This document shows, piece by piece, positions 10,148-53,167 of a stretch of 64,000 bases of DNA. The position numbers and the translations under genes are program-made. The notes below the pieces were generated by a model. The model was given only the letters and a program-made list of their open reading frames with translations, made no database searches and had not been told where the DNA came from. Source of the DNA: an uncultured Verrucomicrobiae bacterium. GTDB lineage: Bacteria > Verrucomicrobiota > Verrucomicrobiia > Chthoniobacterales > UBA10450. The DNA lies in contig CAWFGO010000002.1 in NCBI GenBank assembly GCA_963815455.1, positions 1 through 64,000 on the forward strand, in the 5' to 3' direction. Every line of letters starts with the position of its first letter. Position 1 is the first letter of the stretch.

Positions 10148-10161
10148 TATCGGCAGAGACC

Positions 10162-30003: not shown

Positions 30004-33000
30004 TTACGGAGGGAGCGCATTTCCGGAGCGGGATTTTACCGTCGAGATATCCGAAGCGTTGATCAGGCCGTTGACGTTCACGTCGTTTTTGAAGTTCGTC
30101 ATGGTCGCCGCTTCACCCGAATGCGACTTGGTCTGACTGATGTCGGACGCGTTAACCAAACCGTTGCCGGTTGTGTCGCCCACGAGGAATCCCGCCGTTA
30201 AGTTCGCTGACGCCAGCACTCCGCCATCTACCGCCGTGAGGTTCGTTGCGGTTACCGTCAGTCTCTGCTGATCCGTTACTCCACTCAGGGGCACAATCAG
30301 GTCATTTCCGCTGGCGGTTACCGAGCCCGCGCTTCCCACGCCCGAAGTGACCATCGCGTTTCCGCTCTGCATCGGCTTGTCGAACTTCAGCACCAGTGTG
30401 TAGTTGCCGCTCCCATTTCGCGGCTCCACTCCGGACCCGTCCAATGGCATCACCGCTTCGAATGATCCGGCGGCACCGTGCGTCATCCGCGATACTCCTC
30501 CCGTGAGCACTGGCGCCGGTGCTGTCGTAGTGCAGACGTTGCGCAGAAGAATATTCGTGACCGCGATGTCATCCAGATAGAAGCCCGCGAATTGCGCGCC
30601 TGGGTCGGACGTAAACCTCCATCGGAACTGAATCGGTGTCGCCCGGGGTCAGACCAGTCAGCAGATGGCAGCGCCGGCCATAAGCGGTCAGCGCGTCAGT
30701 GGTCCAGGTATTGCAATCCACACCGCCGATTGCAGCCGGCCCGGTAATGACCGCCTTGGAGGCCGGGTAATCGCAGGCGTTAATCGGCGGATCGTCGGTG
30801 CAGTCCAACGCCGCATAATCGGCCGTAATGTCAGAGACCATGCATCCATCTGCGGTCGAATTGCTCGGCGCGGGCACGTCGGTCCACGGACCGCCGTTGC
30901 GCGAATACTCGATTGCGATTCCATCCCAGCCTTTCTCCAACTGGTGACGTTCCCAATACGTCAGATTTAGAGTGGTCGAAGCCGACGGTCAGGACCGGCG
31001 TTTCGGCTGCCGCGCACACATTGTTGGAGTAAATCGCGTTCGGGCCCGGTCCGGCATTGCGGTAGGCGTAAGCGCCAGCCGGTGTATGATTGGCGCCCGG
31101 GTCGTCGGCAACCCTAACGAACCGCCACGCCGGATCGGCGCTGTTGCCGCCTCCGGCCGGATTTAGCCGCAGGAACGAGGTGGCATCACCGCCGCCATCC
31201 ATCCAGGTGCCGGCCGCGGCCTGTTGCCGGGACCGTAGGCTGTGCCGGCGATATGAACGTTGTTGGTTTCCTCGTTACCGCCGCACGCGCCCCCGCCGCC
31301 CGTGCCGTTGTCCTCCGCGCGCACCACATAATAGTACGTGTTGCCGCTGGTAAGATTGTCGGTATCGACATAGGAACTGGGACCCGGAACGCAGGCTGGC
31401 AACCCGGTTGCGCCGCCGATGGCACAAAATCCGGCACCGTTCCGCGATAAACGTTGTATTTCAGCTGTCTGAGGGGGCAACTCACACTGCCCGGCGACCA
31501 GCTCACCACAATGCCGCAATCAGGACCATCGACGCTGGTGGCAGCCGGTCGCGCCGGCGAAGATCGGTTGCAAGTTGCAGCTTCCGGTCGCGGTGGCGCT
31601 GACGCCGCCGCTCCGAACAAGCGCCTGGCACTTGCCCGCCGCATCGGTCGCCGCGATCACACGATAAGTGTAGGTCACGCCGCCTTGGGCCGTGGTGTCA
31701 GTGAAACTGGTCGAAGTACCGGGAACAGAGGTGAGCGGCTGATAAAGCCCTTCGCTGCCAACTGCCCCAACCGCGCGTTCGATGGCGTAGCTGCCCGGCG
31801 TCGGCGTGATGCCGGTCCAGGTCACTTGAATCTGGTTAGGCCCGGGAACGGAAGCGGTGCCGATAATCGGGGCGCTGGTTGGCCGAGAGGTGCAGGCCGA
31901 AGGCTGGCACTGGCCCATGCCGGTTCCAGCAGGAAAAGCGGCGGAGGCCACTCGGGTGCGCCATTCGAAGTTGGTCGTGCCACTGCCCAGGGCATAATAT
32001 TCGTTCGCATACCAGAAAGTGCAGTCGTCGGCCGGATCGACGCTCATGCTGCTATAATCGCCCCAGCGCCCGGGCAAGCATGCCGAGCGGGATCCGGCAA
32101 CTTCATTTCGGGTGCCGGTAAAGATGATCGTTTCAGGAACGGTCATCGTTCCCAGAGGATCGTTCTTCGCCCGGCCGGTGTAGCGGATCGAGTGGGCATC
32201 GATCGCTTCGATTGTGCCGGTGGCGCTATAGCCGACAATGATGTTCTCGGCGCCATCCATACTGATCGACGGCATCCAGCGGGAACGGCCATTAGGCGCG
32301 TCGGCCACGGTCCCCTGCTGATAAGTGCAGGGATAACTGGAGCAGACAGCGTCGGGTTGTCCTGAAATACGGAATTCGTACCAGCGAATGCCGGAGACGA
32401 CGCCGGTAATGTTCGGGTCGACCGAGTGTGAGATTACCAGGGATTCGTGATCGATGAAGTTTCGGTAGGCCAGGCGGAACATGAGACGATCGGCCAGCGA
32501 GTCGAGAGTGAATGCGCTTTGAGGCTGCGGAATGCAATTACCCGCCGCCGCAAGCGGCACTGGCCGGGGCGATGGGCATAACCGCTTGAAGCGTGCGGGT
32601 TGTGTTCGCCGGCGTGGCGAAATCCACTTTCATTCGATAGAGGTACATCCCATCGCCGTGAACGGAGGTAAAGATGCCCGGCGCCCCTCCCGGCGGCGGA
32701 GCGAATCCATCCAGGTCCGCGGGCATATGCCCGCCTTCCAGAGGATCGACAATGACCTGCCAGGTGGCGGTCGGATCTGCCGCGAGCATTTTAGTCCGAT
32801 CCATGGCGCCGAACCCGCCGCCCACATAGCTGGGCGTGCCGGAAGAGGCGGTAAAATGGTGGGCCATTACGTAGTAGGCGTCGGTCCAGACACCGTAGTG
32901 CGGATAATCGCCGAAATTGCCATTGGGCACGGCAAAGGCATAACGAGCATAATGTCCCGGTAGCGTTGGCTGTGGTGGAAATCGCTACGCACTGATAGTA

Positions 33001-33861
33001 GAAACCGCCCGAAACGGATGAAGTAAACTGCGAGATCAGCCATCGGTTCGCCACTTTGTCATAGAGCACAACCGGGTCGCCGGAATTCTGCGATTGGCAC
33101 GCACCGCCGAAGCCTGCCCAGAGCGTATTAATGTTGACCGGCCCTAGGATCGACGTGGCGGTGTTGGTCGCGCGATTGAGCGACCATACCTGATAGCTCG
33201 TGTTGACCGTCTCTACGTACTGATCGTTACCGACCGAGCCGTTCGTGTCCGGCGGGTATCCCCCCGTTAAACTCCCGGCAACACCATCGAAATTGAAACC
33301 GGTGACCGCAGTCGTCGGAGCCGCCGGCCGGCTCACATCCCGGGGGGCCGGCGCGACCTGAGTCACCGGGTCCGGCCTTGCTGAACGAAGTATGCGTGAG
33401 GGCGGCAGCGGAAGTTCCGGGAGCTGCTCTTCCTTCGGTTCAGGAAGCGAAATTTTAGCCAGCTCCGTCAGCGGCGGCGAAATGTCGAAGTTTGAGGGTG
33501 AGACCGAGTAAACGATCTGGCCGAGTTGATTGCGCTGTTCTTTAATCCTGATGTTCCGGGCGCTGGCTGCCGTCCCTGGCATTTGCCCGCCGCGGTCGGC
33601 GGTGGGCGGGCCGCCGGAAACGGTTTTCGCGGCGCCCCCTCGTGCCGTGAGCATCCTTTTTAATGAAGCCAACAACGACTGGTGGCTACCGGGACCGCTT
33701 TTCACGGCAACGGATCGCGTCTCCGTTCGCGATTCACCGAACGGAGCGGGAATGGTTCCCCCCGCGGCGAGCGCAAGAATGCACCCAACCGCGCCCAGTG
33801 AGATGGCTGTCAAAACGCGCAGATTAAAAATACCGGATTGAGAGGCGGATTTCTTTTTCAT
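30004..33861 (-). pseudogene. Large secreted protein (propeller-like domain, FN3-like repeats, C-terminal beta+dockerin-like module) with at least 8 single-base indels; probably intact and mis-sequenced
   Basis: Fragments 32791..33861, 32538..32930, 31520..32560, 31186..31644, 31163..31519, 30831..31202, 30569..30940 and 30004..30510 stitch into one protein homologous to 51041..53167. Confidence 0.8.
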
Positions 33862-34055
33862 AGAGTGATTAAGTTAAGGACCGACGATTAACAGGTTCGG
33901 ATGAACGAACGCCTGTTGAGTGGTTGACATGCTCCCAATTCGGTTCTCAGCCGGCAACCGGTTGCCTACCTTGTCCGTGTTTCGACATTTCACCTTCACC
34001 CGGCATTGCTCCGCCCGGTTGACAAATTCGCGGTTCTTTGATAGCAGATTCGCCC

Positions 34056-34859
34056 ATGTGTCGTTTTATCACCGTCCTTTTTGCTCTTGTTGCCGGTTCC
34101 ACTTGTTTCGCCGGGCCGGAATCGCTTCCATCGGGCAAGGAAATGGCCGTTTCACCGGCTCCCGCTCCACCAGCCTGTTCCTGGACCGGCATTTACGTTG
34201 GCCTGCGCATCGGTTACGGCGGGCAATGGCACGATGTTCGTTTTGATCCCAGCCGAAGCCCGGGAGACTTCGGTTATTACGGCGACGATGTCTCAGTTGA
34301 TAGCGATGGCGTGATCGGCGGCGGCGCGCTCGGATATAACTATCAGCTTGGCCGGTTCGTGCTCGGCGCCGAAGCGGATTTTTCCGGGGCCGACGTTTCC
34401 GGTAATGGCGTGAATGAGCATCTGAGGTCGGTTGGACCTAACGGCTATGATCCGGATGCGAGCGACCTGTTCGCCCATGAAGACATCGATTGGTTCGGTA
34501 CCGTTCGAGGGCGGATCGGGTACCTCGTTTCGCCCTGCCTGTTGTTTTACGGCACCGGCGGCTTCGCCTATGTCGATCGTACCCTAACGGGAGACCTGGA
34601 CGTTTTCCAGGTGGGTGCGTATCACCACTTTGGCAAATGGGATGGCGTCGTCCCCGGTTGGACGGCCGGTGCAGGCCTGGAGTGGAAACTCGATCGACAC
34701 TGGAGCGTAAAGGTTGAATATCTCTATCTTGATGCTCGCCATCACACTGCTCATGGTCTCGAGACTAGCGACGGTTTCACATATCGTTACTATGCGGTCG
34801 ATTACACTGGTGATACCGAACTGCACACCGGCTCCGTCGGATTAAACTATCAGTTCTGA
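34056..34859 (+). CDS. Outer-membrane beta-barrel protein (Omp25/RopB-like porin family)
   Basis: SWTGIYVG..GYG, GYNYQ..FVLGAEAD, TVRGRIGY, GWTAGAGLE..WSVKVEY, terminal YQF. Confidence 0.88.
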   Translation: MCRFITVLFALVAGSTCFAGPESLPSGKEMAVSPAPAPPACSWTGIYVGLRIGYGGQWHDVRFDPSRSPGDFGYYGDDVSVDSDGVIGGGALGYNYQLGRFVLGAEADFSGADVSGNGVNEHLRSVGPNGYDPDASDLFAHEDIDWFGTVRGRIGYLVSPCLLFYGTGGFAYVDRTLTGDLDVFQVGAYHHFGKWDGVVPGWTAGAGLEWKLDRHWSVKVEYLYLDARHHTAHGLETSDGFTYRYYAVDYTGDTELHTGSVGLNYQF

Positions 34860-35055
34860 TGTCGGCAGCGCGCCGGTTGCGACGGTGATGACATCCATCG
34901 GCCCGGTCTAGGCACCCCTTTTGTTGTAGCCGCTGGTCGAAGACTCGCCGTGGAGAGCGCCGACTGCGGCCACTCCGTCCTCTGTCCTCCGTCTGCTTTC
35001 CCCCTGCTCCGCGCCTGAATGGTCTGCGTTTTGCTTCCCTAGTGCCCCGGAGCCC

Positions 35056-35469
35056 ATGAAAAACCCCTTACGCATTCTAACTGTCGAGGACGAGCCGGCC
35101 GTGACAGACCTGCTTGCGCTCATATTGGGCGGGCCGGCCGCGAAGGTAACCAGCGCATCCGACGGCTGGATGGCGCTCATGAAGATCGGCGCCGCCGCGC
35201 ACCCTTTCGACGTCGTCATTACCGACCATCAGATGCAACGTGTGAATGGGCTCGAACTGGTGCGTCACCTGCGAAAGCGCGAGTTCCCGGGCAAGATCAT
35301 CGTCCTCTCGGCCCATCTCACCGATGAGAACATCCAGGCTTACGAGGAACTAAAGGTGGACATGTTCCTGGCCAAACCCTTCGATGTGGAAGAGCTGCAG
35401 CTGGCCATGAGCCTCCTCACGAAAAAAACGTCAGGAACCGCACCAGCGCCTTTGGCAGCGGTGGCCTGA
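35056..35469 (+). CDS. Single-domain response regulator (receiver only), paralog of 29051..29434
   Basis: VEDE, FDVVITDH, GLELV, VLSAHL, KPF. Confidence 0.9.
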   Translation: MKNPLRILTVEDEPAVTDLLALILGGPAAKVTSASDGWMALMKIGAAAHPFDVVITDHQMQRVNGLELVRHLRKREFPGKIIVLSAHLTDENIQAYEELKVDMFLAKPFDVEELQLAMSLLTKKTSGTAPAPLAAVA

Positions 35470-35498
35470 TTTCCGACTTCTTCGACTTCTGACTTCTG

Positions 35499-35801
35499 CT
35501 ACAGCCGGCTTATCTTTCCTGTCTGCGGGTCGACCATCACTTTTTCGGCAACGTTGCCGCCGGTCCGCCTAAACTGCACGATCCAGACGGAGTTGTCCTT
35601 TACCGTGCCCATTTCGCAGCTGATCAACTGCGCGCCCGGATACTTCTGCTGAACCAACTTCTGCGCCGCCTCTTTGGTGATCGTGGTCGCAGCGGCGGCC
35701 TGGCTATCGGTCGCTGCCTTTTTTGGCTCGGCTTGAGCCCGCGAGTTGGCGAGAACGGAAACGACAACAATTGAAAGAACGATGTAAGCGAATTTTCTCA
35801 T
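35499..35801 (-). CDS. Secreted PepSY-domain protein
   Basis: Signal peptide; IT.E.A...V...YPG ... VW.V ... V.VDP.TGKI. Confidence 0.75.
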   Translation of the reverse strand: MRKFAYIVLSIVVVSVLANSRAQAEPKKAATDSQAAAATTITKEAAQKLVQQKYPGAQLISCEMGTVKDNSVWIVQFRRTGGNVAEKVMVDPQTGKISRL

Positions 35802-35866
35802 GTCCCTAATAAATACGGATCGTCCCGATAATGCAATCCCTTTGCCTCGGGCTCCTGCTTGCCTGC

Positions 35867-36313
35867 CTCGCCCTGACCACTCGACTTCAAGGTGTCGAGG
35901 CGGCCGTGCCGGCCGCGGGTATTGAAACTCCGTCGTCGCAAGCCCTCGCGACTTTACCTTTCTATGTCGTTAATCCCAAATTCTTATTAACTGATAATCG
36001 ATAATGGCAACGCTCCGCATTTCCTAACGTCTGCCTTGGACCAGGTTAACAATGATGATAATGACGGCAATCACGAGGAGGAGATGGATGAGTCCGCCAC
36101 CCACGTGACCGATAAAGCCAAGAAGCCAGAGCACGACCAGAATAACAATAATAGTCCAAAGCATAGAATTCCTTTCGGTTGAGTCGGCCCTCATTTCGCC
36201 ACAACGCCGCGACTCAATCAAGAAAGATTTCGGCCCGACACGCCTTCTCGACGGACCCGCCCGCGCTCGCCCTGACCACTTGACTTCAAGTCGCAGAGGC
36301 AGCCGTGTCGGCC
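35867..36313 (+). repeat. Direct repeat pair (35867..35914 and 36266..36313)
   Basis: ctcgccctgaccactYgacttcaag-N5-gaggcRgccgtgYcggcc present twice, flanking a small gene. Confidence 0.8.
36024..36164 (-). CDS. lmo0937-family small membrane protein
   Basis: MLWTIIVILVVLWLLGF...GGGLIHLLLVIAVI...LVQGRR. Confidence 0.9.
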   Translation of the reverse strand: MLWTIIVILVVLWLLGFIGHVGGGLIHLLLVIAVIIIIVNLVQGRR

Positions 36314-36377
36314 CAAGATCGACAATTTCAGAACCTCGCTTTTTTTCCCGTTCTGACCACTGACTTGTGGCCGGACG

Positions 36378-36902
36378 CTACCAGGAATGTTTCCTGGCCG
36401 TACTTGCTTTTTTCTTGGCCGATTGCGGCTCTTTGGCCGGCACCGGCTGCAGGAACACGTCAGAATGAATATAAAAACCGTTTATCTGCCAGGTATCGTT
36501 CACACGCAGCAGCTGGATCTGAATGGTCGCATGCCCCTTCTCGAATTCAGCCGGAACGGTGTAGTTGCCTACCGTGGCCGTGCCTTCCCCGGTAAACGTG
36601 CTGGTGCCGACCATTCCCTTTGGCGTGCCGAGCTGTTTGAATGACCCCAGCCGCTGGAACATCTCAAAAATGCGATCATACCCGCCGCGCGCGGCCACCG
36701 TTGAATTCAGTTGCGGGCTGGCCCGGTTAACCAGCTCCTGGATGTTCCAATTCGTGACAATCTTAGGTACGGCGTTCTGAATATAAGCCGTGACGTCTTT
36801 ATCCAGCCTCAGCGCAGCCGGAATCAAAATAGCCGCGGCGATCCCGGCAATCACCAGGATCACGCCAAAAATGCCGCCCAGGATCATGAAGAACTTTTTC
36901 AT
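36378..36902 (-). CDS. Hypothetical protein with N-terminal membrane anchor
   Basis: 174-aa ORF, N-terminal TM helix, C-terminal Y..PAEFEKG.A.I.I.L....W.I.GF. Confidence 0.7.
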   Translation of the reverse strand: MKKFFMILGGIFGVILVIAGIAAAILIPAALRLDKDVTAYIQNAVPKIVTNWNIQELVNRASPQLNSTVAARGGYDRIFEMFQRLGSFKQLGTPKGMVGTSTFTGEGTATVGNYTVPAEFEKGHATIQIQLLRVNDTWQINGFYIHSDVFLQPVPAKEPQSAKKKASTARKHSW

Positions 36903-37000
36903 ATCAAGCGGAATAAAACGGGATACCGATCATCATCAGGTCCGCCCCAGTTAGGCAAGATCGAAATCCGCCCCGACCGGAACGAAAATCGAAAGAAAAG

Positions 37001-37055
37001 CTCGCCACGGCGAGTCCGTCTTTTGCCGGACAGGTCGCAGACTCGCCGTGGAGAG
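37001..37055. repeat. Hairpin repeat element (ctcgccacggcgagtc ... gactcgccgtggagag)
   Basis: Inverted arms; related sequences at 19557 and ~34942. Confidence 0.65.
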
Positions 37056-37101
37056 AACGAAGGAACTCCGACGTCGATCTTGTTATGACCTCCGATTGTT
37101 T

Positions 37102-37929
37102 CTGTAGCCACAGCCTGCCCACCGTGTGCGGGTCGCTACGCGACGTCAGATCTGTAGCCGCTGTCGCTGACTGCGGCCGATCCGACTTCTTAATTCTTAC
37201 TTTCCTGTTTCCCGTTTCTCCTCCCAGGCATAAAGCCGCCCCTGGGTGTCAAACCCAGGCACCTGCACCATCCGCTCGTAGCGAAGTCCGAGTTTTTCCA
37301 AAAGATGCGCCGACTTCGCATTGGTCGGCGAAGTGAAGGCGATGATACGCTTCAGACCCAGCTCGGTTCGGCCGTATTGCATCAAGGCCGTAGCCGCTTC
37401 GAAGGCGTAACCGTTACCGGAGAACTCCTGAAGCGTCGAATACCCAATATCGAAGTCCTCAAAGGTGCCGCGTTTCATCAATCCGCACGTGCCAACCGGC
37501 GCGCCAGATGATTTCAATTTCACCACGCAATAACCGACTCCGTAACGCTGGTGTCCTGGCAGAAACTTTTCCCTGATATAATCCGCGGCCTGCTCCACCG
37601 TTCGAACCCCGCGGTCGGCCACATTGGCAATGAAATCCGGCTCGTTCAGCGTCCGGAGGACAAAAGCCGCATCCCGCTCCGCCTCTACTGCCCGCACAAT
37701 TAGCCTCTTGGTTTCGATTTGCTGCATACGCGATCCGTCACCTGAACTTTAACAGAAGGAAACGAAGGTCGCGAAAGCGGGAGAGGGCGGAGATCGGTGA
37801 TCGGGGCTCATGCTCATGCTCATGCTCAATGGAAATTGAGGGAGCCCAGACCGGGGTCAGCGCTCCCGGCTACAACGGATTCCAATGTCGCATAGCGACC
37901 CGCACACGGCGGGCAGGCTGTGGCTACAG
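37102..37929. repeat. Nested inverted REP pairs enclosing a GNAT gene
   Basis: Outer arms 37102..37144 / 37887..37929 (41/43 identical inverted); inner arms 37153..37176 / 37851..37874. Confidence 0.85.
37197..37727 (-). CDS. GNAT N-acetyltransferase (RimJ/RimL family)
   Basis: IETKRL..R, GTCGL, DIGY...FSGNGYAFEAA, N.KS..LLEKLG. Confidence 0.92.
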   Translation of the reverse strand: MQQIETKRLIVRAVEAERDAAFVLRTLNEPDFIANVADRGVRTVEQAADYIREKFLPGHQRYGVGYCVVKLKSSGAPVGTCGLMKRGTFEDFDIGYSTLQEFSGNGYAFEAATALMQYGRTELGLKRIIAFTSPTNAKSAHLLEKLGLRYERMVQVPGFDTQGRLYAWEEKRETGK

Positions 37930-38031
37930 CGGACGTGAAATCGGAAGTCACAGGTCAGTTGTCAGTCAGTGGTCACCGAAGGCACTTTGACGCGTGCAGG
38001 CGGGTCGTCGATCTTCTATTCTTCTATTATT

Positions 38032-39042: not shown

Positions 39043-39161
39043 ATGGGAGAGTGACGGGTGATCAGTGACCAGTGACCGCGTAAAGCGGGACAGTGATCAG
39101 CAATCAGCAAAGTTGTGAATGATATTTGGGCGGCTTCGGTCTAATCTGCAAAGGAGCGAAC

Positions 39162-39803: not shown

Positions 39804-39902
39804 GGGCAGGGCGGAATGTTTAACAGAAGGAAACTCCGAAAGCCTTCGCGAACGGGCGAAGTTTACGAAGGGAAGAGGTTAATCACAATGCGGGAATCAG
39901 CT

Positions 39903-39931
39903 TTGCGTTAAAAGAGCGGATGCGTTACCCT
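39903..39931 (+). promoter_or_regulatory. Candidate sigma-70 promoter giving leaderless antitoxin mRNA
   Basis: TTGCGT-17 bp-TACCCT, 7 nt before GTG 39939, no SD. Confidence 0.45.
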
Positions 39932-39938
39932 TTTCGCC

Positions 39939-40790: not shown

Positions 40791-40878
40791 TCTGCTAAAA
40801 ACCGGTATCCGACACCGGCCTGCCAAAGCGCCGAAATCAGATGCCTGAAGTCAACGTCAGGCTGGAAGCCGATGGCTG

Positions 40879-42136
<1,258 letters not shown>

Positions 42137-42898: not shown

Positions 42899-42958
42899 GT
42901 CTCCGGCCGGAAGCCAGATCTTCGACGGTCAGAGACCGCCGCTGCAGACGCTTAATGC

Positions 42959-44950
42959 TTAACGTTTAGCGCTCGGCGCCGCTGAGGGCAGAGCGGTTCC
43001 CAGGTTCGCTTTCAGCTGAGACACATCGCTGGCGTTGATGGTGCCGTTGACGTTGATGTCGTTGCGGAAATTCGAGCCGGATACCCCCTGGCCTAGCTGG
43101 CCTTTGGCCTGGCTTACATCGGTCGAGTTCACGCTGCCGTTTCCGTTCGTATCGCCGAGAAGAAAACCGGCGGTGACCGAAGCAGATGGCAGCGTTTGAC
43201 CAAAGCTATCCATCACGCTGCTCACGGCGACCGTGACGGTTTGGGCATTGGCGACTCCGGCCAGGTTTATGGTCATGGTGTTGCCGCTGAAAGAAGGAGG
43301 GCCCGACACGCTGCCGATGCCGCTGGTGACCATTGCGTTGCCGCTCACAACAGGATTGTTGAAAGTGAAAACAACGGTGTGATTACCGCCGGCGCCGCCG
43401 GTGCGGCATTCCACGCCCGGTGACCCGGAAAGCGGGAGACTCACATCGAAGATTCCGGCATTGGGGTGAGACTTGCGTGAGCCGGCGCCGTTCAGCGCGA
43501 GCGCCATCGGCAGCACGTTATAGACGCCGATGTGCGTGGCGATCGCGCCGTTGTTCTCCCTGGCCAGTGCATAAACGGTCTGCGGACCAGGGCGCGAATC
43601 TGCCGGGATCGTTCCGAGCCAATGGGTGCCGTCGCCACTGCTGAGTGGCGCCCCGTTGGCGAAAACGTTCGTGATGGTGCGCGTCGTCGGCATTCCGAAG
43701 TCAGGCAGGGCGGTCACAAAGACCTGGATGGGCTGACCTGCCATGACTGTCGGTGGATTGATCTGAACGGGATTCATGATAATCGGAGCGTTGCCTTCTT
43801 CGCATTGGTCGATCACCGCATTGTAGTTTTGATCCGGCGCAGCGCCGTTGGCGATGTCGATGGGATCCGGAATCCCGTTCATATTGCAATCGTTGGTTGG
43901 CGGGGAACAAGTCGTCGGCGGCATCGACGTATCGACGAAATGGGCCATGCCGGCGCAACCAAACGCGGCCGAGCCGTCGGAAAACGTCCCTTCGACGCGC
44001 AACGTGCTTTCGCTGCACGAGCCGGACGCGCACATGCCATAGGAACGGATGTCCACGAAAACATCAAAGAAGGAATCGGGCGCCAGCGGCGGGATCGCCA
44101 TCATGATTTCCGGCTGAGAATAGGGATGGCCAGGCAACGGAAGGCAGGGGCCCGGACCAAAAGCAATTGGAAAATCGTCGCCAAACGGATTTGCGATGGC
44201 AAAGATGCCCTGATTTTCGTTTGCACCTTGCGGCCGCGCAGCAGCCTGCTTGCCGGTAGCGAAGGCGGTGACAGTTAACGTGCGGGTAGGATCGTTGTTC
44301 GTGATCCGGTAGGTCATGGTGTGCTGATCCCCGCCGGCCATCATCGGAAATGAAGGCGTGAGCCGTTGCAAATCCAGCCGCGGAACACTCGGGTTGCCCG
44401 GAGCCGGCTCGACCAGACAAACTACCGTGTCCCCGCTCTGGCTAAGGGAGAGTCCGTCCGAGAAAAACACGGTTGTTTTCCCAACTACTTTGTAAGCACC
44501 CCGGGCCGTGCCCGCGGGCACAGTGATTGGAACCGAATAGTTGTTGAAGACGCCGATTGGCGAGGCGCCGGGCAGAGTCATGGTGCCGTCGGCCGTACTG
44601 ATCCCAGCGATGGCAATATTCGGTCCGCCCAGAAGCGGCGATACGACCATGTCGATCCTGGCCGAAGTGGGAGAAACCGGCATAGGACACGGGGCGCACC
44701 CGGGAGCGGGATTATTAGCAATCAAGAAGAGTTTAACCGGAATGTTAAACATGACGGACGTGCTCGCCGGCAACAGGACCACACCGGGACTGGATTTTGC
44801 CATCACCATCGACTTGAGGCAGGTGGTGGTCGTTACGGTGCAGACCGAGCCGCTACTGCCGGAACAGGCAAAAGCAGGCTCGCGCTCCGGTGCCAGGAGC
44901 AGACCGATACTGATGAGAACCAAGGCGGTAAGAATCTTTGCGTATTTCAT
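42959..44950 (-). CDS. Secreted Cys-rich protein with Ca-binding repeat and C-terminal beta+dockerin-like module
   Basis: Signal peptide; DCNMNGIPD..DQNYNAVIDQCE; SRKSH..GVECR..VANAQ..GDTNGNGSVNSTD..NFRNDINVNGTINASD. Confidence 0.85.
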   Translation of the reverse strand: MKYAKILTALVLISIGLLLAPEREPAFACSGSSGSVCTVTTTTCLKSMVMAKSSPGVVLLPASTSVMFNIPVKLFLIANNPAPGCAPCPMPVSPTSARIDMVVSPLLGGPNIAIAGISTADGTMTLPGASPIGVFNNYSVPITVPAGTARGAYKVVGKTTVFFSDGLSLSQSGDTVVCLVEPAPGNPSVPRLDLQRLTPSFPMMAGGDQHTMTYRITNNDPTRTLTVTAFATGKQAAARPQGANENQGIFAIANPFGDDFPIAFGPGPCLPLPGHPYSQPEIMMAIPPLAPDSFFDVFVDIRSYGMCASGSCSESTLRVEGTFSDGSAAFGCAGMAHFVDTSMPPTTCSPPTNDCNMNGIPDPIDIANGAAPDQNYNAVIDQCEEGNAPIIMNPVQINPPTVMAGQPIQVFVTALPDFGMPTTRTITNVFANGAPLSSGDGTHWLGTIPADSRPGPQTVYALARENNGAIATHIGVYNVLPMALALNGAGSRKSHPNAGIFDVSLPLSGSPGVECRTGGAGGNHTVVFTFNNPVVSGNAMVTSGIGSVSGPPSFSGNTMTINLAGVANAQTVTVAVSSVMDSFGQTLPSASVTAGFLLGDTNGNGSVNSTDVSQAKGQLGQGVSGSNFRNDINVNGTINASDVSQLKANLGTALPSAAPSAKR

Positions 44951-45290
44951 TGGGCCTCCACGAATCCTTTAGCGGATTCTGTTTTTTTGGGTTACTAAGG
45001 AACGCCGTAATCGTCCTGCGACGATCCCGGCATTCTTCGAGAAATTGGGACGCCGGAAGCCGCCAGCGCCGTTGCCATCCCAGAACATACCGCAGCCACT
45101 CTTCTACGCGTAAAGGTGGGCGGCGGCATGACGAACTCCTCTAAAGGCGATCCTCTTCAAGGATAACCAACAACGTCAAGCTCTTTTCTTCGGTATCGAA
45201 GTTGTGGATATTCAATCCGCGACGTCCAGGTCAGGGACCCGGGCACAAGTGTTCGTGACGCGGGTTGTGCGGCTTGGTAGAATCCGCGCT

Positions 45291-45809
45291 ATGGATTCGT
45301 TTTCCCCTGCTCCATTACGACCCGGCTCCGGCGAACGCTGGCGGTTCTTGCGCGATCTGATTGTTTTTCAACTTAAAATGTTGCTGGATAATGTGCGCGA
45401 TTTTGCGCTCATGCCGATCGCGCTGGTGGCCGCGATTGTCGATGTTGTTTACAAAGGGGAAGTGGAAGGCGCGCGTTTTTACAGGGTTTTGCGCTGGGGC
45501 GCGCACAGCGAAGAGGTCATCAATGTCTACAGCGCGATCAAGCAGCATCCGTTGGGCGAATTCAAGGTGAACCCCGCTTACACGGTCGATGCCGTGATTG
45601 CTCAACTGGAAGGCGTTGTTGTGCGCGAGTGCGAAAAGGGCGGCACCGCAATGAGCATTAAGGAAGCGATGGATCGCGCGTTCGACCAGATCCACCGACA
45701 AACGCGGGATACAGGCGACCGGGCCCGGGACGTTGTCGCGCGCACGGCCGATAAACTGCGGCTCAAGATCGATACTCTGCCGGAGGAGAAGAGCGAGAGC
45801 GAAGGCTGA
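45291..45809 (+). CDS. Hypothetical protein
   Basis: Helical ORF (RDLIVFQLKMLLD..RD..L.P); ATG 45291 7 nt after TAGAAT. Confidence 0.7.
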   Translation: MDSFSPAPLRPGSGERWRFLRDLIVFQLKMLLDNVRDFALMPIALVAAIVDVVYKGEVEGARFYRVLRWGAHSEEVINVYSAIKQHPLGEFKVNPAYTVDAVIAQLEGVVVRECEKGGTAMSIKEAMDRAFDQIHRQTRDTGDRARDVVARTADKLRLKIDTLPEEKSESEG

Positions 45810-45842
45810 CTTTACTTGGTTCGCGTTGGACGAAGAAGAATC

Positions 45843-46889
45843 ATGTTTTCAACCAAAGGATATGCCGCGCAGGCCGCGCAGGAACAATTGAAGCCCTTCT
45901 CATTCGAGCGGCGTGACCCGACGCCGAACGATGTGCAGATCGAGATCCTTTTCTGCGGCGTGTGTCACTCGGACATTCATACCGCGCGGAACGAATGGGG
46001 CGGCACGACTACCTACCCCTGCGTGCCCGGTCATGAAATCGTCGGGCGCGTGGTGAAGGTGGGACGCGACGTAAAGAAATTTAAAGAAGGCGACCTGGCG
46101 GCGGTCGGTTGCATGGTCGATTCATGCGGGGTTTGCGGGAACTGCAAGGCGGACCTGGAGCAGTTCTGCGAGAACGGATGCGTGTTCACTTACAACAGCA
46201 AAGATGAACACACCGGCGGGATCACCTACGGCGGATATTCCAAGAGCATCGTGGTGGACCAGGAGTTCGTGCTGCGAATTTCCAACAAGCTCGACCTCGC
46301 TTCTTCCGCTCCGCTTCTCTGCGCCGGGATCACCACTTATTCGCCGTTGCGCCGTTGGCAGGTGAGGAAAGGCCAGAAAGTGGGCGTGATCGGTCTGGGT
46401 GGCCTCGGCCATATGGCGCTCAAGTTCGCCCACGCCTTCGGCGCCGAGGTGATTTTGTTTACCACGTCACCGGGCAAGACCGAAGACGCGAAGCGGTTGG
46501 GCGCGAATGACGTCGTGATTTCCAAGAACGAAGATGAGATGAAGAAACATGCGACGAGTTTCGATTTCATCATCGACACCGTATCGGCGAAACATGATCT
46601 CGCCCCTTATCTCGATCTTTTAAAACGCGATGGCGTTCTGACATTGGTGGGCGTGCCGCCAGAGCCGATGCCGGTGAACGTTTTCAGCTTGATCATGCCG
46701 CGGCGTCAACTGGCGGGGTCCCTCATCGGTGGAATCGCCGAGACGCAGGAGATGCTCGATTTTTGTGCCGATCGGGGAATTACATGCGATATCGAGATGA
46801 TCCCGATCAGTAAGATCAACGAAGCGTATGAGCGGATGCTGAAGAGCGATGTGAAGTATCGGTTCGTGATCGATATGGCGACGGCGTGA
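45843..46889 (+). CDS. Zn-dependent NAD(P)-dependent alcohol dehydrogenase (cinnamyl-ADH/AdhC type)
   Basis: CGVCHSD, PGHEIVG, CxxCxxC..C, PLLCAGITTYSPL, GLGGLGHM, KYRFVID. Confidence 0.95.
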   Translation: MFSTKGYAAQAAQEQLKPFSFERRDPTPNDVQIEILFCGVCHSDIHTARNEWGGTTTYPCVPGHEIVGRVVKVGRDVKKFKEGDLAAVGCMVDSCGVCGNCKADLEQFCENGCVFTYNSKDEHTGGITYGGYSKSIVVDQEFVLRISNKLDLASSAPLLCAGITTYSPLRRWQVRKGQKVGVIGLGGLGHMALKFAHAFGAEVILFTTSPGKTEDAKRLGANDVVISKNEDEMKKHATSFDFIIDTVSAKHDLAPYLDLLKRDGVLTLVGVPPEPMPVNVFSLIMPRRQLAGSLIGGIAETQEMLDFCADRGITCDIEMIPISKINEAYERMLKSDVKYRFVIDMATA

Positions 46890-46943
46890 TGGGAAGTGAC
46901 GAGTGGCGAGTGACGAGTGATCAGCAGGCGGTGACCAGTGTGA

Positions 46944-47945
46944 TCAGAGTCCTTTTTTCATTTTCACGGCGGGTGGGCGCTCGACGTGACCGCCGAAACC
47001 TTTGCGCATCGCGGAGAGGATTTTCTCGGCAAAGGTGTGTTCCTGCCGGGAACGGAACCGGGTGTAAAGCGCGACCGAGAGCACTTCGGCCGATACGCCC
47101 TCTTCGAGCGCGGCTTGAATTGTCCAACGGCCTTCTCCCGAATCCTCCACGAAACCGGAATAACCCTCGAGTTGCCGATCGCTGGCCAGCGCGGCCGCAG
47201 TGAGATCGAGCAGCCAGGACGAGACGACGCTTCCGCGCCGCCAGAGCTCGGCGATGTCGGCAAGGTTTAGATCGTAAGCGAGTCCCGCGGGGAGGTTATC
47301 CGAATTCGCGCCGCGCAGAATGTCGAATCCTTCGGCGTATGCCTGCATCAGGCCATATTCGATTCCGTTATGAATCATTTTCACAAAGTGTCCGGCTCCG
47401 GACGCGCCGCAATAGAGATAGCCGAGCTCGGCGGTGCTCTTCATCTTTTCCCGGCCCGTTGTCTTGGGAAGGTCGCCCGGGCCGGGCGCCAGAGTAGCGA
47501 AGATCGGGTCGAGCCGTTCGGCCGTGGATTGATCGCCCCCGATCATCATGCAGTAGCCTCGCTCCAAACCCCAGACTCCGCCGCTCGTGCCAGCATCGAG
47601 ATAGTGGATCCCACGGGGCTTGAGCATCTCGCTGCGGCGCACGTCGTCTTTGTAGAATGAATTTCCGCCGTCAATAATCGCGTCCCCGGACTGCAGCACT
47701 TTGGAAAGCGCGACCACGGTCTCTTCCGTAGACGGGCCAGATGGGAGCATGATCCAGACAGCACGGGGCGCGCTAAGTTTTTCGACAACTTCCTCAAGCG
47801 AGTAGGCGGGAAGCGGGCCTTCCTTGGCCAATGCATCGACCGTTGCCCGGTTGCGATCGAACACGACACATTGATGGCCGCCCCTGGTCAGGCGTCGTGC
47901 CATGTTCCCGCCCATTCGGCCCAGACCGATCATTCCAATTTGCAT
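46944..47945 (-). CDS. gnd: 6-phosphogluconate dehydrogenase (decarboxylating), short type
   Basis: [48 protein letters not shown]. Confidence 0.95.
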
Positions 47946-48069
47946 TCAATGAGCCTGATTGGGAAAGCGGAAATTAGAAAGGCTAAAATGGAAAGGCCGA
48001 ACGAAAACGCCGGGAGGCTGGCATGTTCGCCGCGATCGCTTATTGTCTCTTGAACGATAACCGCCCCTG

Positions 48070-48342
48070 ATGATGGCAATCATTCAAAGTAACCCGGCAA
48101 AATTGATCCTGGCCATGGCCGACCCGCTGATGCCGATCCGGATTCTCGCCGTCATTGCGCTCATCGCAGCGATCGTGGCGTTCATCTACGTTCTGCGACA
48201 TTTGAAGAAGATCGAGAAAACGATCGCGACCGATAATCTTGTGCCGGCAGAGCGCGGTCCACGCAACAACATGGTGCTCATGGTCTGCGCAATCCCGATT
48301 ATCGTGGTGGCGCTTCTGCTGTTCCTGATTGTCAATACTTAG
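48070..48342 (+). CDS. Hypothetical membrane protein (two TM helices)
   Basis: Two hydrophobic stretches in a 90-aa ORF. Confidence 0.6.
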   Translation: MMAIIQSNPAKLILAMADPLMPIRILAVIALIAAIVAFIYVLRHLKKIEKTIATDNLVPAERGPRNNMVLMVCAIPIIVVALLLFLIVNT

Positions 48343-48389
48343 CGAGCAGCACAGAAGGCGTGGCGCGCGCGCTCAGTTGTAAACAGAGC

Positions 48390-48893
48390 TTACGGCAACG
48401 CGGTGCCGAGGTTGGCTTTCACCTGCGAGACATCGGTGGCGTTGATCGTGCCGTTGCCGTTTACGTCACAACGGAAATTGGAACTATCGATCGGCTGTCC
48501 CACGCGCGATTTTGCCTGGCTCACATCTGAGGCATTGACGACGCGGTTTCCGTTCGTGTCGCCTTGAAGGAAACCAGCCGGAAGGTTCACGTCGTTGGTA
48601 TGGACGCCGTCGTTGACGTAGTTGAGCCTGACGTTGATTTGTTGCGCATTCCCAACACCGGTCAGGTTCACGGTCACTTGCGACCCGTCAACGCTGAAGC
48701 TGCTCACGCTTCCGACGCCGCTGTTGACGCTGGCGCTGAAAACCGTGACCGGCGTCGCGAAGTCCATGACGATCTGAAAATTTCCGCTCGTTCCCGACCT
48801 GCGAGGTTCAACTCCGACAGTGCCGGTTAACGGAAACTCGACACCGAATTGACCATTCATCATCGAGCGGTTGCCGCCAGAATGCATTGTCAA
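48390..48893 (-). CDS. Stand-alone beta+dockerin-like module protein
   Basis: Entire 167 aa matches the C-terminal module of four other genes (GVEPR, VGNAQ, GDTNGNRVVNASD, NFRCDVNGNGTINATD); no signal peptide. Confidence 0.75.
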   Translation of the reverse strand: MTMHSGGNRSMMNGQFGVEFPLTGTVGVEPRRSGTSGNFQIVMDFATPVTVFSASVNSGVGSVSSFSVDGSQVTVNLTGVGNAQQINVRLNYVNDGVHTNDVNLPAGFLQGDTNGNRVVNASDVSQAKSRVGQPIDSSNFRCDVNGNGTINATDVSQVKANLGTALP

Positions 48894-48926
48894 TCTACCA
48901 TTGAATCGTTTTCACCGACGGGCTTC

Positions 48927-50900
48927 CTAGAACGGCGGCGCGACCGGAACAGACGTCCCGACTTGCGACTTCACCAGAGCGACATCGGACGCGTTGATCG
49001 TCCCGTTGGCATTGACGTCCGAACGAAAGTTCGTCGCGTCGAGAATTTGACCCGCCCGCGACTTTGTCTGGCTCACGTCGGAAGCGTTGACGGTGCCGTT
49101 GCCGCCGGTATCGCCGGCCAACACACTCATTCCAATGTCCACATTGGCCGAACTGTTCACGGAGTTGAGCCTCACCGTGATGGTCTGGGCATTGGTCACA
49201 TTTGTTAGCGGAATCGTCACAGTATTGCCGCTGACCGTCACCATGCCGCCGTTGGACACTCCGCCGCTGCCTATTGTCCCTACGCCAGAATTTATCTGCG
49301 CTTGCGGACTCCCGCTTACGGTCACGGAATTAGCAAACGTAACCACGATTGCGTAATCATCGGTTGCCCCGCCACTGCGACACTCGATCCCTGGCGGCCC
49401 GCTCACTCCAAGATCGACATCGAAAGTGCCAGCACCGCCATGGATCTTTCGCGACACCGCGTTTTGCGCTACCGGCGCTGCCGGAGTCACTCGCACGTAA
49501 TAAACGTCCTCTTCGTGTTGCCCTCTGCTCGCGTTGAAATTGAACGTGGCGGCATAGGCGACATTGCCTCCGGTGTTGTCCGAAACGATGGTGATGTAAT
49601 CGCCCATCTTGTTCTGGTTCGGATAGCCTTCCGATGGATTAAACGAATTGCTCACCGCGATGTTCGGCGCCCAGGTCACACCGCCGTCAATGCTGTAGGA
49701 ATAGAACAACTGCGAATCGATGTTATTCGCGCCGTTGCGGCTATCGAGCCAGACAGAATCGATCCGGCCGTTAGGCGCCACTGAGAGCGTGCCGAACCAA
49801 TGATACTTGCTGTGATTAACGGGATCATCGTTGATCCGGATCGGCGCGCTAAAGCTTACTCCGCCGTTGGTGCTGCGGGCAAACATCACGTCGGTCCCGG
49901 TGCTAAAGCCGGTCGGCCGTACGCTGGCCAGCATGTAAATATTGTTGTTGGTCGGCCCGCCAGAACGGTCCACCGCCAGGAAAGCCTGTCCGCAAAGGCC
50001 TGCTGGATTTATTCCGCCGCTTACTATGAGACCACCAAGACTCACCGCGGTTACCCGGTCAAAAGTTGGCGTGACGCCACCATTCTGCGCATTGCTCGAG
50101 CGGACGCAGTAAAAGGTTGTGCTCCCTTCTCCTCCGATAAAAAGGTTGCCGTTCGTATCGACATCGAGCGTTCCGTACACAGGTGAGTTGGGAATGGTGA
50201 TGGGAGCCTGCCACGTAAACCCGCCATCCGTGGAGCGCTGAAATTGCACCCCGCTGCCGGTACAGTTAATCCCATCGTCCGCCTGGTACTGGAAGCCGTG
50301 CCCCGGCCCGTTGGTTTTATCAATGGTAAACCACTGCTTGTCGCCTCCCCCACCGCCCCTTTCCCCCGACAACAGCGTCCACGATTGGCCGCCATTCAGC
50401 GAGCGCCACAGATCATCGCAAAAAAACGACTGGTTCACATCCGACTGAAGACTGAGATAGAAAAAATTGCCGACCTCATCGTAAGCCGTTACCGGGTCGC
50501 TGCGGAAAATGTTGTTTTCCAAAACACCCGGGAAAGTCCAGGTGAGGCCGCCATCGCTGGTGTATCCCCAGCCGCCCTGCCGGAAGTTTGATAACACGCT
50601 GTTGAACTGCCGCCAGCCGATGGTCATCTTGTTAGGGTTGGTCGGGTCAACGGAAATGGAGCACTCGTTAGCGGCGTCGCCGACAATGTTGTTGCCACTG
50701 GCATCGACGTTTACCTGGTAACTGGTAAACGGACCGTACCGCGAGACCATTCGTGGCGAAGTCTCCAGCCGGTAAATGTACATTGGTGGATTGTCGTATT
50801 TTTCCAGCGGCTCGGTTCGGAGCGGCCTGTATGTGGGCGCGAGTTGCCCCGAAGCGGTGGCAAGGCCAGACAGCAGACCCAGACAAATAAAAAAGCGCAT
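48927..50900 (-). CDS. Secreted BNR/Asp-box (sialidase-like beta-propeller) protein with C-terminal beta+dockerin-like module
   Basis: Asp-boxes TSDGGLTW, SLNGGQSW, STDGGFTW, STNGGVSF, SIDGGVTW; signal MRFFICL..; module from AVSRKIHGG. Confidence 0.88.
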   Translation of the reverse strand: MRFFICLGLLSGLATASGQLAPTYRPLRTEPLEKYDNPPMYIYRLETSPRMVSRYGPFTSYQVNVDASGNNIVGDAANECSISVDPTNPNKMTIGWRQFNSVLSNFRQGGWGYTSDGGLTWTFPGVLENNIFRSDPVTAYDEVGNFFYLSLQSDVNQSFFCDDLWRSLNGGQSWTLLSGERGGGGGDKQWFTIDKTNGPGHGFQYQADDGINCTGSGVQFQRSTDGGFTWQAPITIPNSPVYGTLDVDTNGNLFIGGEGSTTFYCVRSSNAQNGGVTPTFDRVTAVSLGGLIVSGGINPAGLCGQAFLAVDRSGGPTNNNIYMLASVRPTGFSTGTDVMFARSTNGGVSFSAPIRINDDPVNHSKYHWFGTLSVAPNGRIDSVWLDSRNGANNIDSQLFYSYSIDGGVTWAPNIAVSNSFNPSEGYPNQNKMGDYITIVSDNTGGNVAYAATFNFNASRGQHEEDVYYVRVTPAAPVAQNAVSRKIHGGAGTFDVDLGVSGPPGIECRSGGATDDYAIVVTFANSVTVSGSPQAQINSGVGTIGSGGVSNGGMVTVSGNTVTIPLTNVTNAQTITVRLNSVNSSANVDIGMSVLAGDTGGNGTVNASDVSQTKSRAGQILDATNFRSDVNANGTINASDVALVKSQVGTSVPVAPPF

Positions 50901-51040
50901 CCTTGAAACCATAAAAAGCACTCGAGTTGAAGAAGGGCAGCCTATATCAGAATCCACTCGCGGCGTCGATCTAATCCTTTAGACCCAAGTGAGGAAATTT
51001 CGACTCGGGCAGTGCCGTTACACTTCGCGGCTCAGCTCCA

Positions 51041-53167
51041 TTGCCCTCTTATCGTTGCACAAACCGAGAACGACCGGGGGGCGTAGTTTGTTGTCGCGAA
51101 TCCAGCTGGAAAAAGTTACCATCGGCTATCACGGAAAAAGCGGCCAACTCGTATCCAAGAATCTTGACCGGGGCTGTGCTGTGTAGCGCAGGCGCATTGC
51201 TCGCCCTGTTATGCGTTACCGCGGCTCCACTGCCGGCGGGCAGGTCGAGCATTGAGCAAATCCAACGTCGGCCGGCCGTTGGCATGTCGGTTCACAACGA
51301 TGTCTCGCCGCCGCTGCGTGATATCGGCCGATTGTCGATCCAATCAGCGGATTCCATCACGCCGAACCTCCTTACGGATCCAATACTGAACTTTGAGGGC
51401 ATGACGACGTTCCTCGCTCCCCCCGCGATGCAAGGTGCAGTGGGACAAAGCCATTACGTCCAGATCTTGCACCAAAGTTATCAGGTATTCGACAAGACCA
51501 CCGGCGGTTCCGTGCTCGGACCAAACACCATCATGTCCATGTGGGTCGGCTTTGGCGGTCTGTGCCAGACAAATGGGGGACTGGAGCCCCTGGTTGTGTA
51601 TGACCAGATTGCCAACCGTTGGTTGGTCGTTCAATTTGCAGGCACCCTTGGGCTCACCGAAGCGTGCATCGCCGTTTCCAACACCAGTGATGCCACCGGC
51701 AGTTACAATCGGTACGCTTTTCATTTCCCGTCCAATAATCTTGACGACTGGAAACTCGGAATCTGGCCGGACGCGTACTATATGAGCGCCGCCGCCTTCG
51801 ACGCGAATACAGCTGTGGCAGTCGCGTTGGATCGCGCCGCAATGATCGCGGGACAGCCTGCCAGTTATCAGCTTTTTCCGCGACCCGCCAACGAGAGAAA
51901 AATGTTACCGGCGACCCTGGAAGGATCGACATCGCCACCGCCAGGCGCGCCGAATCCGTTTTTGCAATTCCCGAGCGGCGGTAGCTACAAACTTTTTCGA
52001 TACCACGTCGATTTTGCCACCCCGGCAAATTCTACGTTCACCGGACCGATTCCCATCGCAGCAGCGGCTTTTATGGAACTTTGTCCATCGAACTCAAGTT
52101 GTGTCCCGCAACCAGCCACCGCCACCCGGGTCGACGGAGTCGGTGATCGCCTAATGTCGAGACTCGCTTATCGGAATTTAAGCGATCACGAAATGCTGGT
52201 GGGGAATTTTAGCGTCCAAATCGGGATCAGCCCCAGCCAGTTCAGCGCAATCCGCTGGTTCGAGATGCGCAGGGTCACTTCTGGCACGCCGATCGTTTTT
52301 CAGGAAGCCACCTTCGCGCCGGACAACCTTTGGCGTTGGTTAGGAAGCAGCGCCACGGATCAACTCGGAAACATTGCTCTCGGTTATAGCATATCTCACG
52401 GCAGTTTGTTTCCCGGTATTCGTTACGCCGGGCGATTGGCAACGGGCCCGCCCGGTTCGATGCAAGGGGACTTTCTGCTCATCAATGGCACTGGCAGTCA
52501 AACCAGCCCCTCTCACACTTGGGGGCCTCACAGTGCGATGACTGTCGATCCGGTCGATGAGCGAACGTTCTGGTTCACCAGCGAATATTACACCACCACC
52601 ACTTCCTATCAGCCGCATACCCGCATCGGCAGTTTTAGATTTCCAGTTGCACCGGCCATACAATCGATTGTCTCGCGAAAGATCCATGGCGGCATGAACT
52701 TTGACATCGCGCTTCCCGCTACCGGTAATCCCGGAATCGAATGTCGCCGCGGCTCGGGAGCAAATTCGAACAATCACCAGGTGATCGTGACGTTTGCCGA
52801 GCCGGTCAACGTCGACGGTGTGGTGGTAAACAGCATTGACGGGCAGGCCACCGCGACTACCAGCGTTGCCGGAGCAGCCGTCATTGTCGATCTTTCCAGT
52901 GTAGCAAACGCGCAGATAATCAGAATCACGCTCACCAACGTAGCCGGCGACACGGATATCGGAAACGTTTCATTTCCAATGTCGTTCTTGCTCGGCGACA
53001 CAACCGGCAACGGTAGCGTCAACGCCTCCGATGTCGGGCAAACCAAAGCGCGAGCGGGTCAGGTGTTGAGTGAGACCAATTTTCGCAGCGACCTCAACGA
53101 GAACGGCACGATCAACGCAAGCGATGTTGCCATTGTAAAAGCGCAGGTCGGCACGTCGCTTCCGTAG
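51041..53167 (+). CDS. Secreted propeller-like protein with C-terminal beta+dockerin-like module (start uncertain)
   Basis: Collinear homology to 30004..33861 (YDQIANRW, GIWPDAYY, RLAYRN, IRWFE, VDP.D..TFW); module from IVSRKIHGG. Confidence 0.85.
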   Translation: MPSYRCTNRERPGGVVCCRESSWKKLPSAITEKAANSYPRILTGAVLCSAGALLALLCVTAAPLPAGRSSIEQIQRRPAVGMSVHNDVSPPLRDIGRLSIQSADSITPNLLTDPILNFEGMTTFLAPPAMQGAVGQSHYVQILHQSYQVFDKTTGGSVLGPNTIMSMWVGFGGLCQTNGGLEPLVVYDQIANRWLVVQFAGTLGLTEACIAVSNTSDATGSYNRYAFHFPSNNLDDWKLGIWPDAYYMSAAAFDANTAVAVALDRAAMIAGQPASYQLFPRPANERKMLPATLEGSTSPPPGAPNPFLQFPSGGSYKLFRYHVDFATPANSTFTGPIPIAAAAFMELCPSNSSCVPQPATATRVDGVGDRLMSRLAYRNLSDHEMLVGNFSVQIGISPSQFSAIRWFEMRRVTSGTPIVFQEATFAPDNLWRWLGSSATDQLGNIALGYSISHGSLFPGIRYAGRLATGPPGSMQGDFLLINGTGSQTSPSHTWGPHSAMTVDPVDERTFWFTSEYYTTTTSYQPHTRIGSFRFPVAPAIQSIVSRKIHGGMNFDIALPATGNPGIECRRGSGANSNNHQVIVTFAEPVNVDGVVVNSIDGQATATTSVAGAAVIVDLSSVANAQIIRITLTNVAGDTDIGNVSFPMSFLLGDTTGNGSVNASDVGQTKARAGQVLSETNFRSDLNENGTINASDVAIVKAQVGTSLP

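Follow-up and report, generated by a model that had tools for sequence, protein, structure and literature searches.

Shared C-terminal module on five genes

The DNA analysed here (the window) is a stretch of 64,000 nt, positions 1-64,000 of contig CAWFGO010000002.1 from an uncultured Verrucomicrobiae bacterium, whose genome is labelled G000. Five genes of the window carry one module, referred to below as the tag, which in all five is built of a predicted immunoglobulin (Ig)-like beta domain and a Pfam type I dockerin. The tag is real, and the common partner predicted for it from a sequence-only reading of the window now has a specific candidate, a PEP-CTERM protein predicted to fold as a cohesin. 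The two probably dock, which would hold many different exported proteins on the cell envelope.

Tags 1-4 (of the genes beginning at 30004, 42959, 48390 and 48927) were found on the minus strand and the tag of 51041..53167 on the plus strand. All five modules described in the sequence-only reading were present and passed the Pfam Dockerin_1 (PF00404) cut-off of 22.9 bits, with scores of 27.9-43.8 bits, and their pairwise identity was 41-56% over approximately 160 columns. Our recount of positions 10-11 in the ten dockerin loops agreed exactly with that reading (AS in 8/10 loops, ST in one and AT in one).

Tag 1 (30004..30498, minus strand; beta domain approximately 30181..30498, dockerin 30004..30180, code AS/AS) ends a frameshift-split gene for a secreted-type protein (30004..33861, minus strand), the cargo of which is paralogous to that of 51041..53167 (37-41% identity between the two genes). 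The module is there as proposed, but the gene is not the single open reading frame (ORF) that had been assumed: it lies in ORF pieces with five frame changes against its paralogue G000:C2:175108-178734, and the module is confined to a 168-aa piece. Since other genes of the same assembly also appear split, including two that we take to be dnaK and thyA, sequencing indels are plausible here, and they are as likely as a pseudogene. The paralogues G000:C2:175108-178734(-) and C3:759166-762873(-) end without a tag, so the tag has been gained or lost among paralogues.

Tag 2 (42959..43483, minus strand; beta domain 43157..43483, dockerin and short tail 42959..43156, code ST/AS) ends a 663-aa signal-peptide protein (42959..44950, minus strand) with a hydrophobic leader and a Cys-rich, unannotated cargo. 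Tag 3 (48390..48893, minus strand; dockerin 48390..48563, code AS/AT) makes up a 167-aa ORF of its own, located 33 bp past the stop of the 48927 gene. It has no hydrophobic leader or signal peptide and its first motif is degenerate; this leaderless module is likely a remnant. Tag 4 (48927..49463, minus strand; beta domain 49116..49463, dockerin 48927..49115, code AS/AS) ends a signal-peptide protein (48927..50957, minus strand) with BNR/Asp-box repeats, predicted to form a beta-propeller (Pfam BNR 28.2 bits, cut-off 27). These repeats are the only basis for the label 'sialidase-like' that the cargo had been given. Tag 5 (52667..53167, plus strand; beta domain 52667..52993, dockerin 52994..53167, code AS/AS) ends a signal-peptide protein (51041..53167, plus strand), and its unannotated cargo belongs to a multi-copy family in G000.

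Tag in the host genome and in the family

A profile of the five window modules was run on the stop-to-stop ORFs of the 3.6-Mb G000 genome, which is 90% complete. It matched 51 ORFs, and 44 of them covered at least 120 of the 165 tag positions. The tag was located within 30 residues of the ORF end in 41 of these 44; the other three comprised one protein tagged at its N terminus and a pair of RHS proteins. Pfam gave 48 dockerin matches in G000, every one of them at a tag locus, and Asp was found at loop positions 1 and 12 in all 87 aligned dockerin loops. With a crude hydrophobicity test a hydrophobic leader was detected in 26/44 tagged ORFs, many of the remaining ones being short pieces. Among the 32 tagged ORFs outside the window, Pfam (E<=1e-5) identified subtilase S8, phosphoesterase, propellers of the BNR, Kelch, FG-GAP and DUF5122 types, cadherin-like repeats (one such protein has 3473 aa), RHS and PMP repeats, and many cargoes were unannotated. 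No glycoside hydrolase was found in these 32 ORFs at the same threshold, in the window genes or in the two fusions described below, with many cargoes unannotated and some fragments unscanned.

The beta domain travels with the dockerin, as had been proposed: in a search with the beta domain only, all of the best 120 matches ran on through the dockerin and 115 of the 120 ended within 25 aa of the C terminus. Residues of the beta domain were near-invariant family-wide. A model of the tag from a 5-row alignment had a predicted local distance difference test (pLDDT) value of 57, and the fold search with this low-confidence model gave generic Ig-like matches (best Z 8.2), with no X-module listed. 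An Atlas search with the beta domain returned Verrucomicrobiota dockerin clusters alone (0.80-0.81). NCBIfam has no model for the tag, nor for the partner domain introduced below.

In a first sample, the tag was found in 15/24 same-family relatives, with up to 61 copies per genome, and in 1/16 genomes from other families of the order. In the larger set it was detected in 89/121 genomes of the same family, and the beta domain alone was found in 6/401 genomes phylum-wide, three of these being single copies outside the family. Within the phylum searched the tag is almost confined to one Verrucomicrobiota family. At NCBI the relatives go by 'Chthoniobacterales bacterium' or 'Verrucomicrobiota bacterium', and this Chthoniobacterales-related group is abundant in soils. 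One unpublished genome is among the 89 tag-positive genomes (G135) and one among the 32 tag-negative genomes (G008); no conclusion rests on either.

Candidate partner with a predicted cohesin fold

The protein with the N-terminal tag, G000:C1:1028689-1030635(-), has an unannotated 160-aa domain after its tag. The same domain was detected at five G000 loci, all outside the window, with one copy each. Three of the loci encode a signal peptide, the domain and a PEP-CTERM tail (G000:C1:59829-60587(-), where the domain spans C1:59913-60401, G000:C1:322718-323533(-) and a frameshifted copy, G000:C1:13701-14470(+)). In the other two, G000:C3:75296-76450(+) and G000:C1:1028689-1030635(-), the domain is fused to a tag. 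Further fusions with the order tag-cohesin-cargo-tag were found in P0001, P0003 and P0004, and the tag is N-terminal or internal in P0001-P0005. The cohesin-plus-tag fusions have no membrane anchor. The domain had 366 homologues of similar length, with a PEP-CTERM match in most of the best 120. The usual, though not universal, pattern of the partner is a signal peptide, PEP motif, hydrophobic helix and basic tail, and partner tails scored 27.1 and 19.7 bits with TIGR02595 (cut-off 16). G000 also has four exosortase genes, one of them split, and four secretin matches.

The AlphaFold2 (AF2) model of the partner domain, made from 118 sequences, had a pLDDT of 97.1 and a predicted template-modelling score (pTM) of 0.90. 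When the model was compared with 48,161 PDB representatives by VIA-align, ranks 1-17 were cohesin entries, two of which we take to be cohesins; the best was 6kgc (Z 13.8, root-mean-square deviation 2.3, 135 aligned). The top 8 Foldseek matches were likewise cohesins (best E 2.3e-7). The partner domain is accordingly predicted to have the elongated beta-sandwich fold of cohesins, with 9-18% identity to the structurally matched cohesins. In an Atlas search with the partner, cohesin clusters came up at 0.93-0.94, with Pfam annotation on 13% and 25% of their members; the recognition value of 2229 was under 2300, and the result is taken as a lead only. Modelling the partner and window tag 5 as a complex yielded scores of 0.25 and 0.31, the mark being 0.32, in a run with no controls folded, and the outcome was used neither for nor against binding.

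Pfam cohesin (PF00963) itself was tried as the partner and rejected, having no match in G000 at E<=1 and exceeding the cut-off in 1/121 family genomes. That sole protein, L005:1384-2028(-) of G022, has a signal peptide and a PEP-CTERM-like tail and was not alignable with the partner family. At three other loci, L026 (G012), L055 (G090) and L012 (G038), a cohesin-like domain precedes an unannotated C-terminal domain, which takes the place of PEP-CTERM and is possibly an alternative anchor.

Co-occurrence and adjacency of tag and partner

The same 121 family genomes were searched for the tag, the partner and exosortase. The partner was found in 44/121 genomes with a 14-row profile and in 53/121 with a 51-row profile, all of them tag-positive; with the latter it was present in 53/89 tag-positive versus 0/32 tag-negative genomes. 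By tag number, it was present in 3/21 genomes with 1-3 tags, 11/22 with 4-9, 16/22 with 10-19 and 23/24 with at least 20, the tag counts in these classes being at-least values that level near 30. Exosortase was detected in 110/121 genomes. Because 27/32 tag-negative genomes keep exosortase, absence of the partner does not equal absence of the sorting system.

Gene order was determined at 38 partner loci (the best match of 36 genomes and two more of G002). At 19/38 loci a same-strand tag ended no more than 1 kb upstream of the partner, and at 26/38 a tag lay within 5 kb. As controls, 2/26 other PEP-CTERM genes of G000 were within 5 kb of a tag, as is 11% of the genome. A single cluster of four tagged genes exists in G007, and the partner is encoded within it. 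In G038, from another family, a partner-like ORF (E 4.5e-4) comes after the only tag of the genome. G164 and G500 also have one tag each, with no partner-like ORF within the 1.5 kb read. For 26 adjacent pairs, partner distance correlated with dockerin distance at r 0.59 (partial 0.53) and with beta-domain distance at 0.33 (partial 0.12). The divergence of the partner may follow the dockerin more than the beta domain, which is suggestive only, the genomes being kin and not independent.

Genome-specific residues at dockerin positions 10-11

Positions 10-11 are described as the specificity determinants of cellulosomal dockerins (excerpts of PMC8063739 and PMC3413522). In G000, loop 1 (n=44) had AS in 21, SS in 10 and SA in 5 cases, and loop 2 (n=43) AS in 18, AT in 9 and SS in 8. 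A charged residue was found once at these positions in the 87 loops, inside an internal RHS tag. The two RHS-repeat proteins, G000:C1:593872-596535(+) and C3:729372-735176(-), have the tag before a C-terminal tip and off-code loops (SD, NA). AS, which the sequence-only reading had named as the specificity residues, is the most frequent pair in G000, but the genome-wide pattern is small/small and other codes occur in the relatives sampled: AG in 25/32 loops of G002, SG in 8/8 of G007, AV in 10/12 of G067, GN in 12/12 of G125 and NG in 6/6 of G100, all with a partner. AS is not family-wide, since positions 10-11 are genome-specific codes in partner-bearing genomes.

Charged residues, Pro or Gln were found at positions 10-11 in 0/150 loops (0/31 genomes) with the partner and in 46/106 loops (21/35 genomes) without it. 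Both loops were identical in 55/75 dockerins with the partner versus 13/53 without. The contrast was also seen within genera, with versus without partner: g8 0/3 versus 5/5, g42 0/2 versus 3/5, g44 0/1 versus 2/3 and g17 0/1 versus 2/2. The calcium aspartates remained intact without the partner. In these comparisons G038, G067 and G125 were counted as partner-positive on weaker or frameshifted matches, G140 was excluded (truncated tag), and some tags per genome were sampled, often beside the partner gene. The codes are genome-specific and loop-symmetric with the partner, and decay where the partner is not found.

Co-occurrence, adjacency and tracking of the code point to a specific candidate for the common partner, which had been imagined as a scaffold, S-layer or export machine; the tag would bind this candidate. 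No positive evidence was found for an export machine such as the type IX secretion system (T9SS), or for an S-layer.

Proposed mechanism and alternatives

We consider it probable that approximately 45 exported proteins are held on the cell envelope by one exosortase-anchored, monovalent cohesin socket that is non-cellulosomal. Both proteins would be exported by Sec, and exosortase would process the PEP-CTERM tail and anchor the predicted cohesin. The cargo would plug in 1:1 via its calcium-loaded dockerin, possibly in two orientations given the symmetry of its two loops. The beta domain may act as an X-module-like stabiliser or spacer and the cohesin-plus-tag fusions as adaptors able to build chains; passage to the outer surface may be possible, secretin genes being present. 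A more far-reaching version, which we put forward tentatively and think rather doubtful, is a self-specific code: up to 60 interchangeable surface proteins would share a two-residue key per genome that fits a database-invisible, exosortase-anchored cohesin, adaptor fusions would polymerise the coat, and kin would exchange or capture secreted cargo (RHS proteins included) with non-kin excluded.

Several findings weigh against the cohesin socket. The partner was not found in 36/89 tag-positive genomes (two with frameshifted copies), and a relaxed search of 30 tag-positive and 32 tag-negative genomes gave only four short matches (E 0.014-0.28). Genomes of genus g4 (G004, G051, G068, G081 and G092) have 7-17 tags each, with the partner not found; in their sampled loops the recognition positions were scrambled and the calcium aspartates intact, so that these are either relic tags or tags with another partner. 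The contrast in the code was not present in genera g6, g48, g43 and g22, and the tests of code and co-divergence are biased by the kinship of the genomes and by tags being often sampled beside the partner gene. Multi-copy tags that persist with intact calcium aspartates where the partner is not found would be expected if the tag were mainly an export or sorting signal resembling the T9SS C-terminal domain, its beta domain being read by a secretion machine and cohesin binding being secondary. The near-invariant beta-domain residues and the four secretin matches fit such a signal as well, but the decay of the recognition residues where the cohesin-like gene is not found does not, nor does a tag that is also N-terminal or internal (3/44 in G000; P0001-P0005). 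No tag-linked export gene was seen in the loci read, no systematic search having been made, and the T9SS markers TIGR04183 and PF11751 had no match in G000, but none in any control genome either. We regard this explanation as improbable.

The identity of the partner is also open to objection. None of 14 partner sequences matched Pfam cohesin and the best PDB cohesin had E 0.13, so there is no significant link at the sequence level, and the first non-cohesin structural match was a CLIPPER adhesin domain (9ifr, Z 9.9). A second PEP-CTERM family, represented by L126 (G000:C1:1115660-1116568(+)) at 149 bp behind a tagged gene, was found in 14 genomes, all 14 tag-positive, having been chosen because of its place behind a tagged gene; nesting alone is therefore non-specific. 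With tagged genes clustering in islands, the partner might be an adhesin with a cohesin fold and no affinity for the tag, with shared surface-gene islands explaining the linkage and the dockerin serving as a calcium-binding cap. This would leave unexplained both the genome-specific, loop-symmetric codes with their decay in partner-less genomes and the order of tag then partner (19/38 loci, versus 2/26 control genes within 5 kb), and we think it very improbable. The L126-family domain shares an ORF with the tag in G047 and, judged from sequence, appears to swap between tag and PEP-CTERM anchors.

Finally, excerpts of PMC4960237 report that PEP-CTERM proteins of A. muciniphila are more abundant in intracellular than in outer-membrane fractions, and a surface location can therefore not be assumed. 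Cohesin-dockerin binding could be real while cleavage by exosortase sets the cohesin free or keeps it in the periplasm, giving a periplasmic or matrix network and not a surface coat. All the binding evidence fits this network equally well, and PEP-CTERM systems have been tied to extracellular polymeric substances (EPS) and floc formation (bioRxiv 10.1101/2023.06.07.544157, in excerpt). The fusions without a membrane anchor are also in line with it. Against it stands the cargo, with the 3473-aa cadherin-like protein, RHS proteins, subtilase and phosphoesterase, which are proteins that usually work extracellularly, and a network of this kind seems to us of low likelihood.

Comparison with known systems

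OlpA and OlpC of C. thermocellum (3ul4, 4dh2) and the sortase-anchored ScaE of R. flavefaciens (2zf9) also combine one cohesin with an envelope anchor as a dockerin socket, and the partner model matched these structures with Z 12.6, 12.4 and 8.9, respectively. Their anchors are of the SLH or sortase type (PMC11557425, in excerpt), whereas here the anchor would be PEP-CTERM/exosortase in a diderm host. Unlike in cellulosome producers, no multi-cohesin scaffoldin was found in G000 (five loci with one domain copy each; no Pfam cohesin). The system is not a cellulosome, because Pfam identified no glycoside hydrolase in the cargo scanned.

The tag resembles in size the XDoc dyad of C. thermocellum CipA/ScaA and CipB (2b59, 5k39), in which an Ig-like domain of approximately 100 aa directly precedes the dockerin (164 aa in total according to excerpts of PMC5141474, versus approximately 165 here). 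In sequence, a weak similarity to 2b59_B (E 0.0024) reaches into the last part of the beta domain. According to the same excerpts XDoc is carried by scaffoldins that have type II dockerins, and the type I dockerins of enzymes lack it, whereas here every cargo has the beta domain and the best dockerin score is type I. The planctosome of freshwater Planctomycetes (Nemodlikiaceae; PMC6461901, in excerpt) is likewise a hypothetical non-cellulolytic cohesin-dockerin display in a diderm of the Planctomycetes-Verrucomicrobia-Chlamydiae (PVC) group, with an anchor, an adaptor and peptidase cargo. Its anchor has 2,210 aa, a lamin-tail domain and a database-recognisable cohesin, in contrast to the cohesin-PEP-CTERM protein of approximately 220 aa, the beta-domain tag and the up to 61 tags per genome seen here. 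The planctosome is the nearest diderm precedent, with a different anchor.

As in PEP-CTERM/exosortase sorting generally, a tail passing TIGR02595 and exosortase genes are present. Unlike in the usual form, one PEP-CTERM protein would extend its anchor to dozens of tail-less proteins. Our literature search, with subscription journals largely outside it, found no report of a PEP-CTERM cohesin with dockerin cargo or of this tag; a review on ANME mentions exosortase and cohesin but makes no connection between them.

Other features of the window and the family

Elsewhere in the window there is an uninterrupted series of seven large genes for ABC permeases, whose products contain MacB_PCD and FtsX domains (5..18198; five on the plus and two on the minus strand). 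Two OMP_b-brl outer-membrane barrel genes were found at 34038..34859(+) and 56514..57410(-), and a flavin amine-oxidoreductase at 27164..28918(-) has what, judged by reading the sequence, is a twin-arginine-like leader. In the family, a large secreted-type protein, L006:1-2667(+) of G131, and possibly also G000:C3:237582-239837(+), has at its C terminus another duplicated domain, distinct from the tag and marked by an N-I-S-T-R motif. The family may thereby have a second tag system.

Implications

The function of non-cellulosomal dockerins has been described as unknown (PMC5244752, in excerpt, citing Peer et al. 2009), and cognate cohesins that escape Pfam may be one reason why it stays obscure. 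The system gives a concrete, testable pair of dockerin and candidate cohesin, and would connect the PEP-CTERM/exosortase route, itself little understood, with docking by cohesin and dockerin. A specificity code that decays without its partner is a natural experiment, and the code classes (AS/SS, AG, SG, AV, GN and NG) might serve as new orthogonal pairs in designer assemblies. If true, the proposed socket would account for the retention of much of the exported proteome in this Chthoniobacterales-related family.

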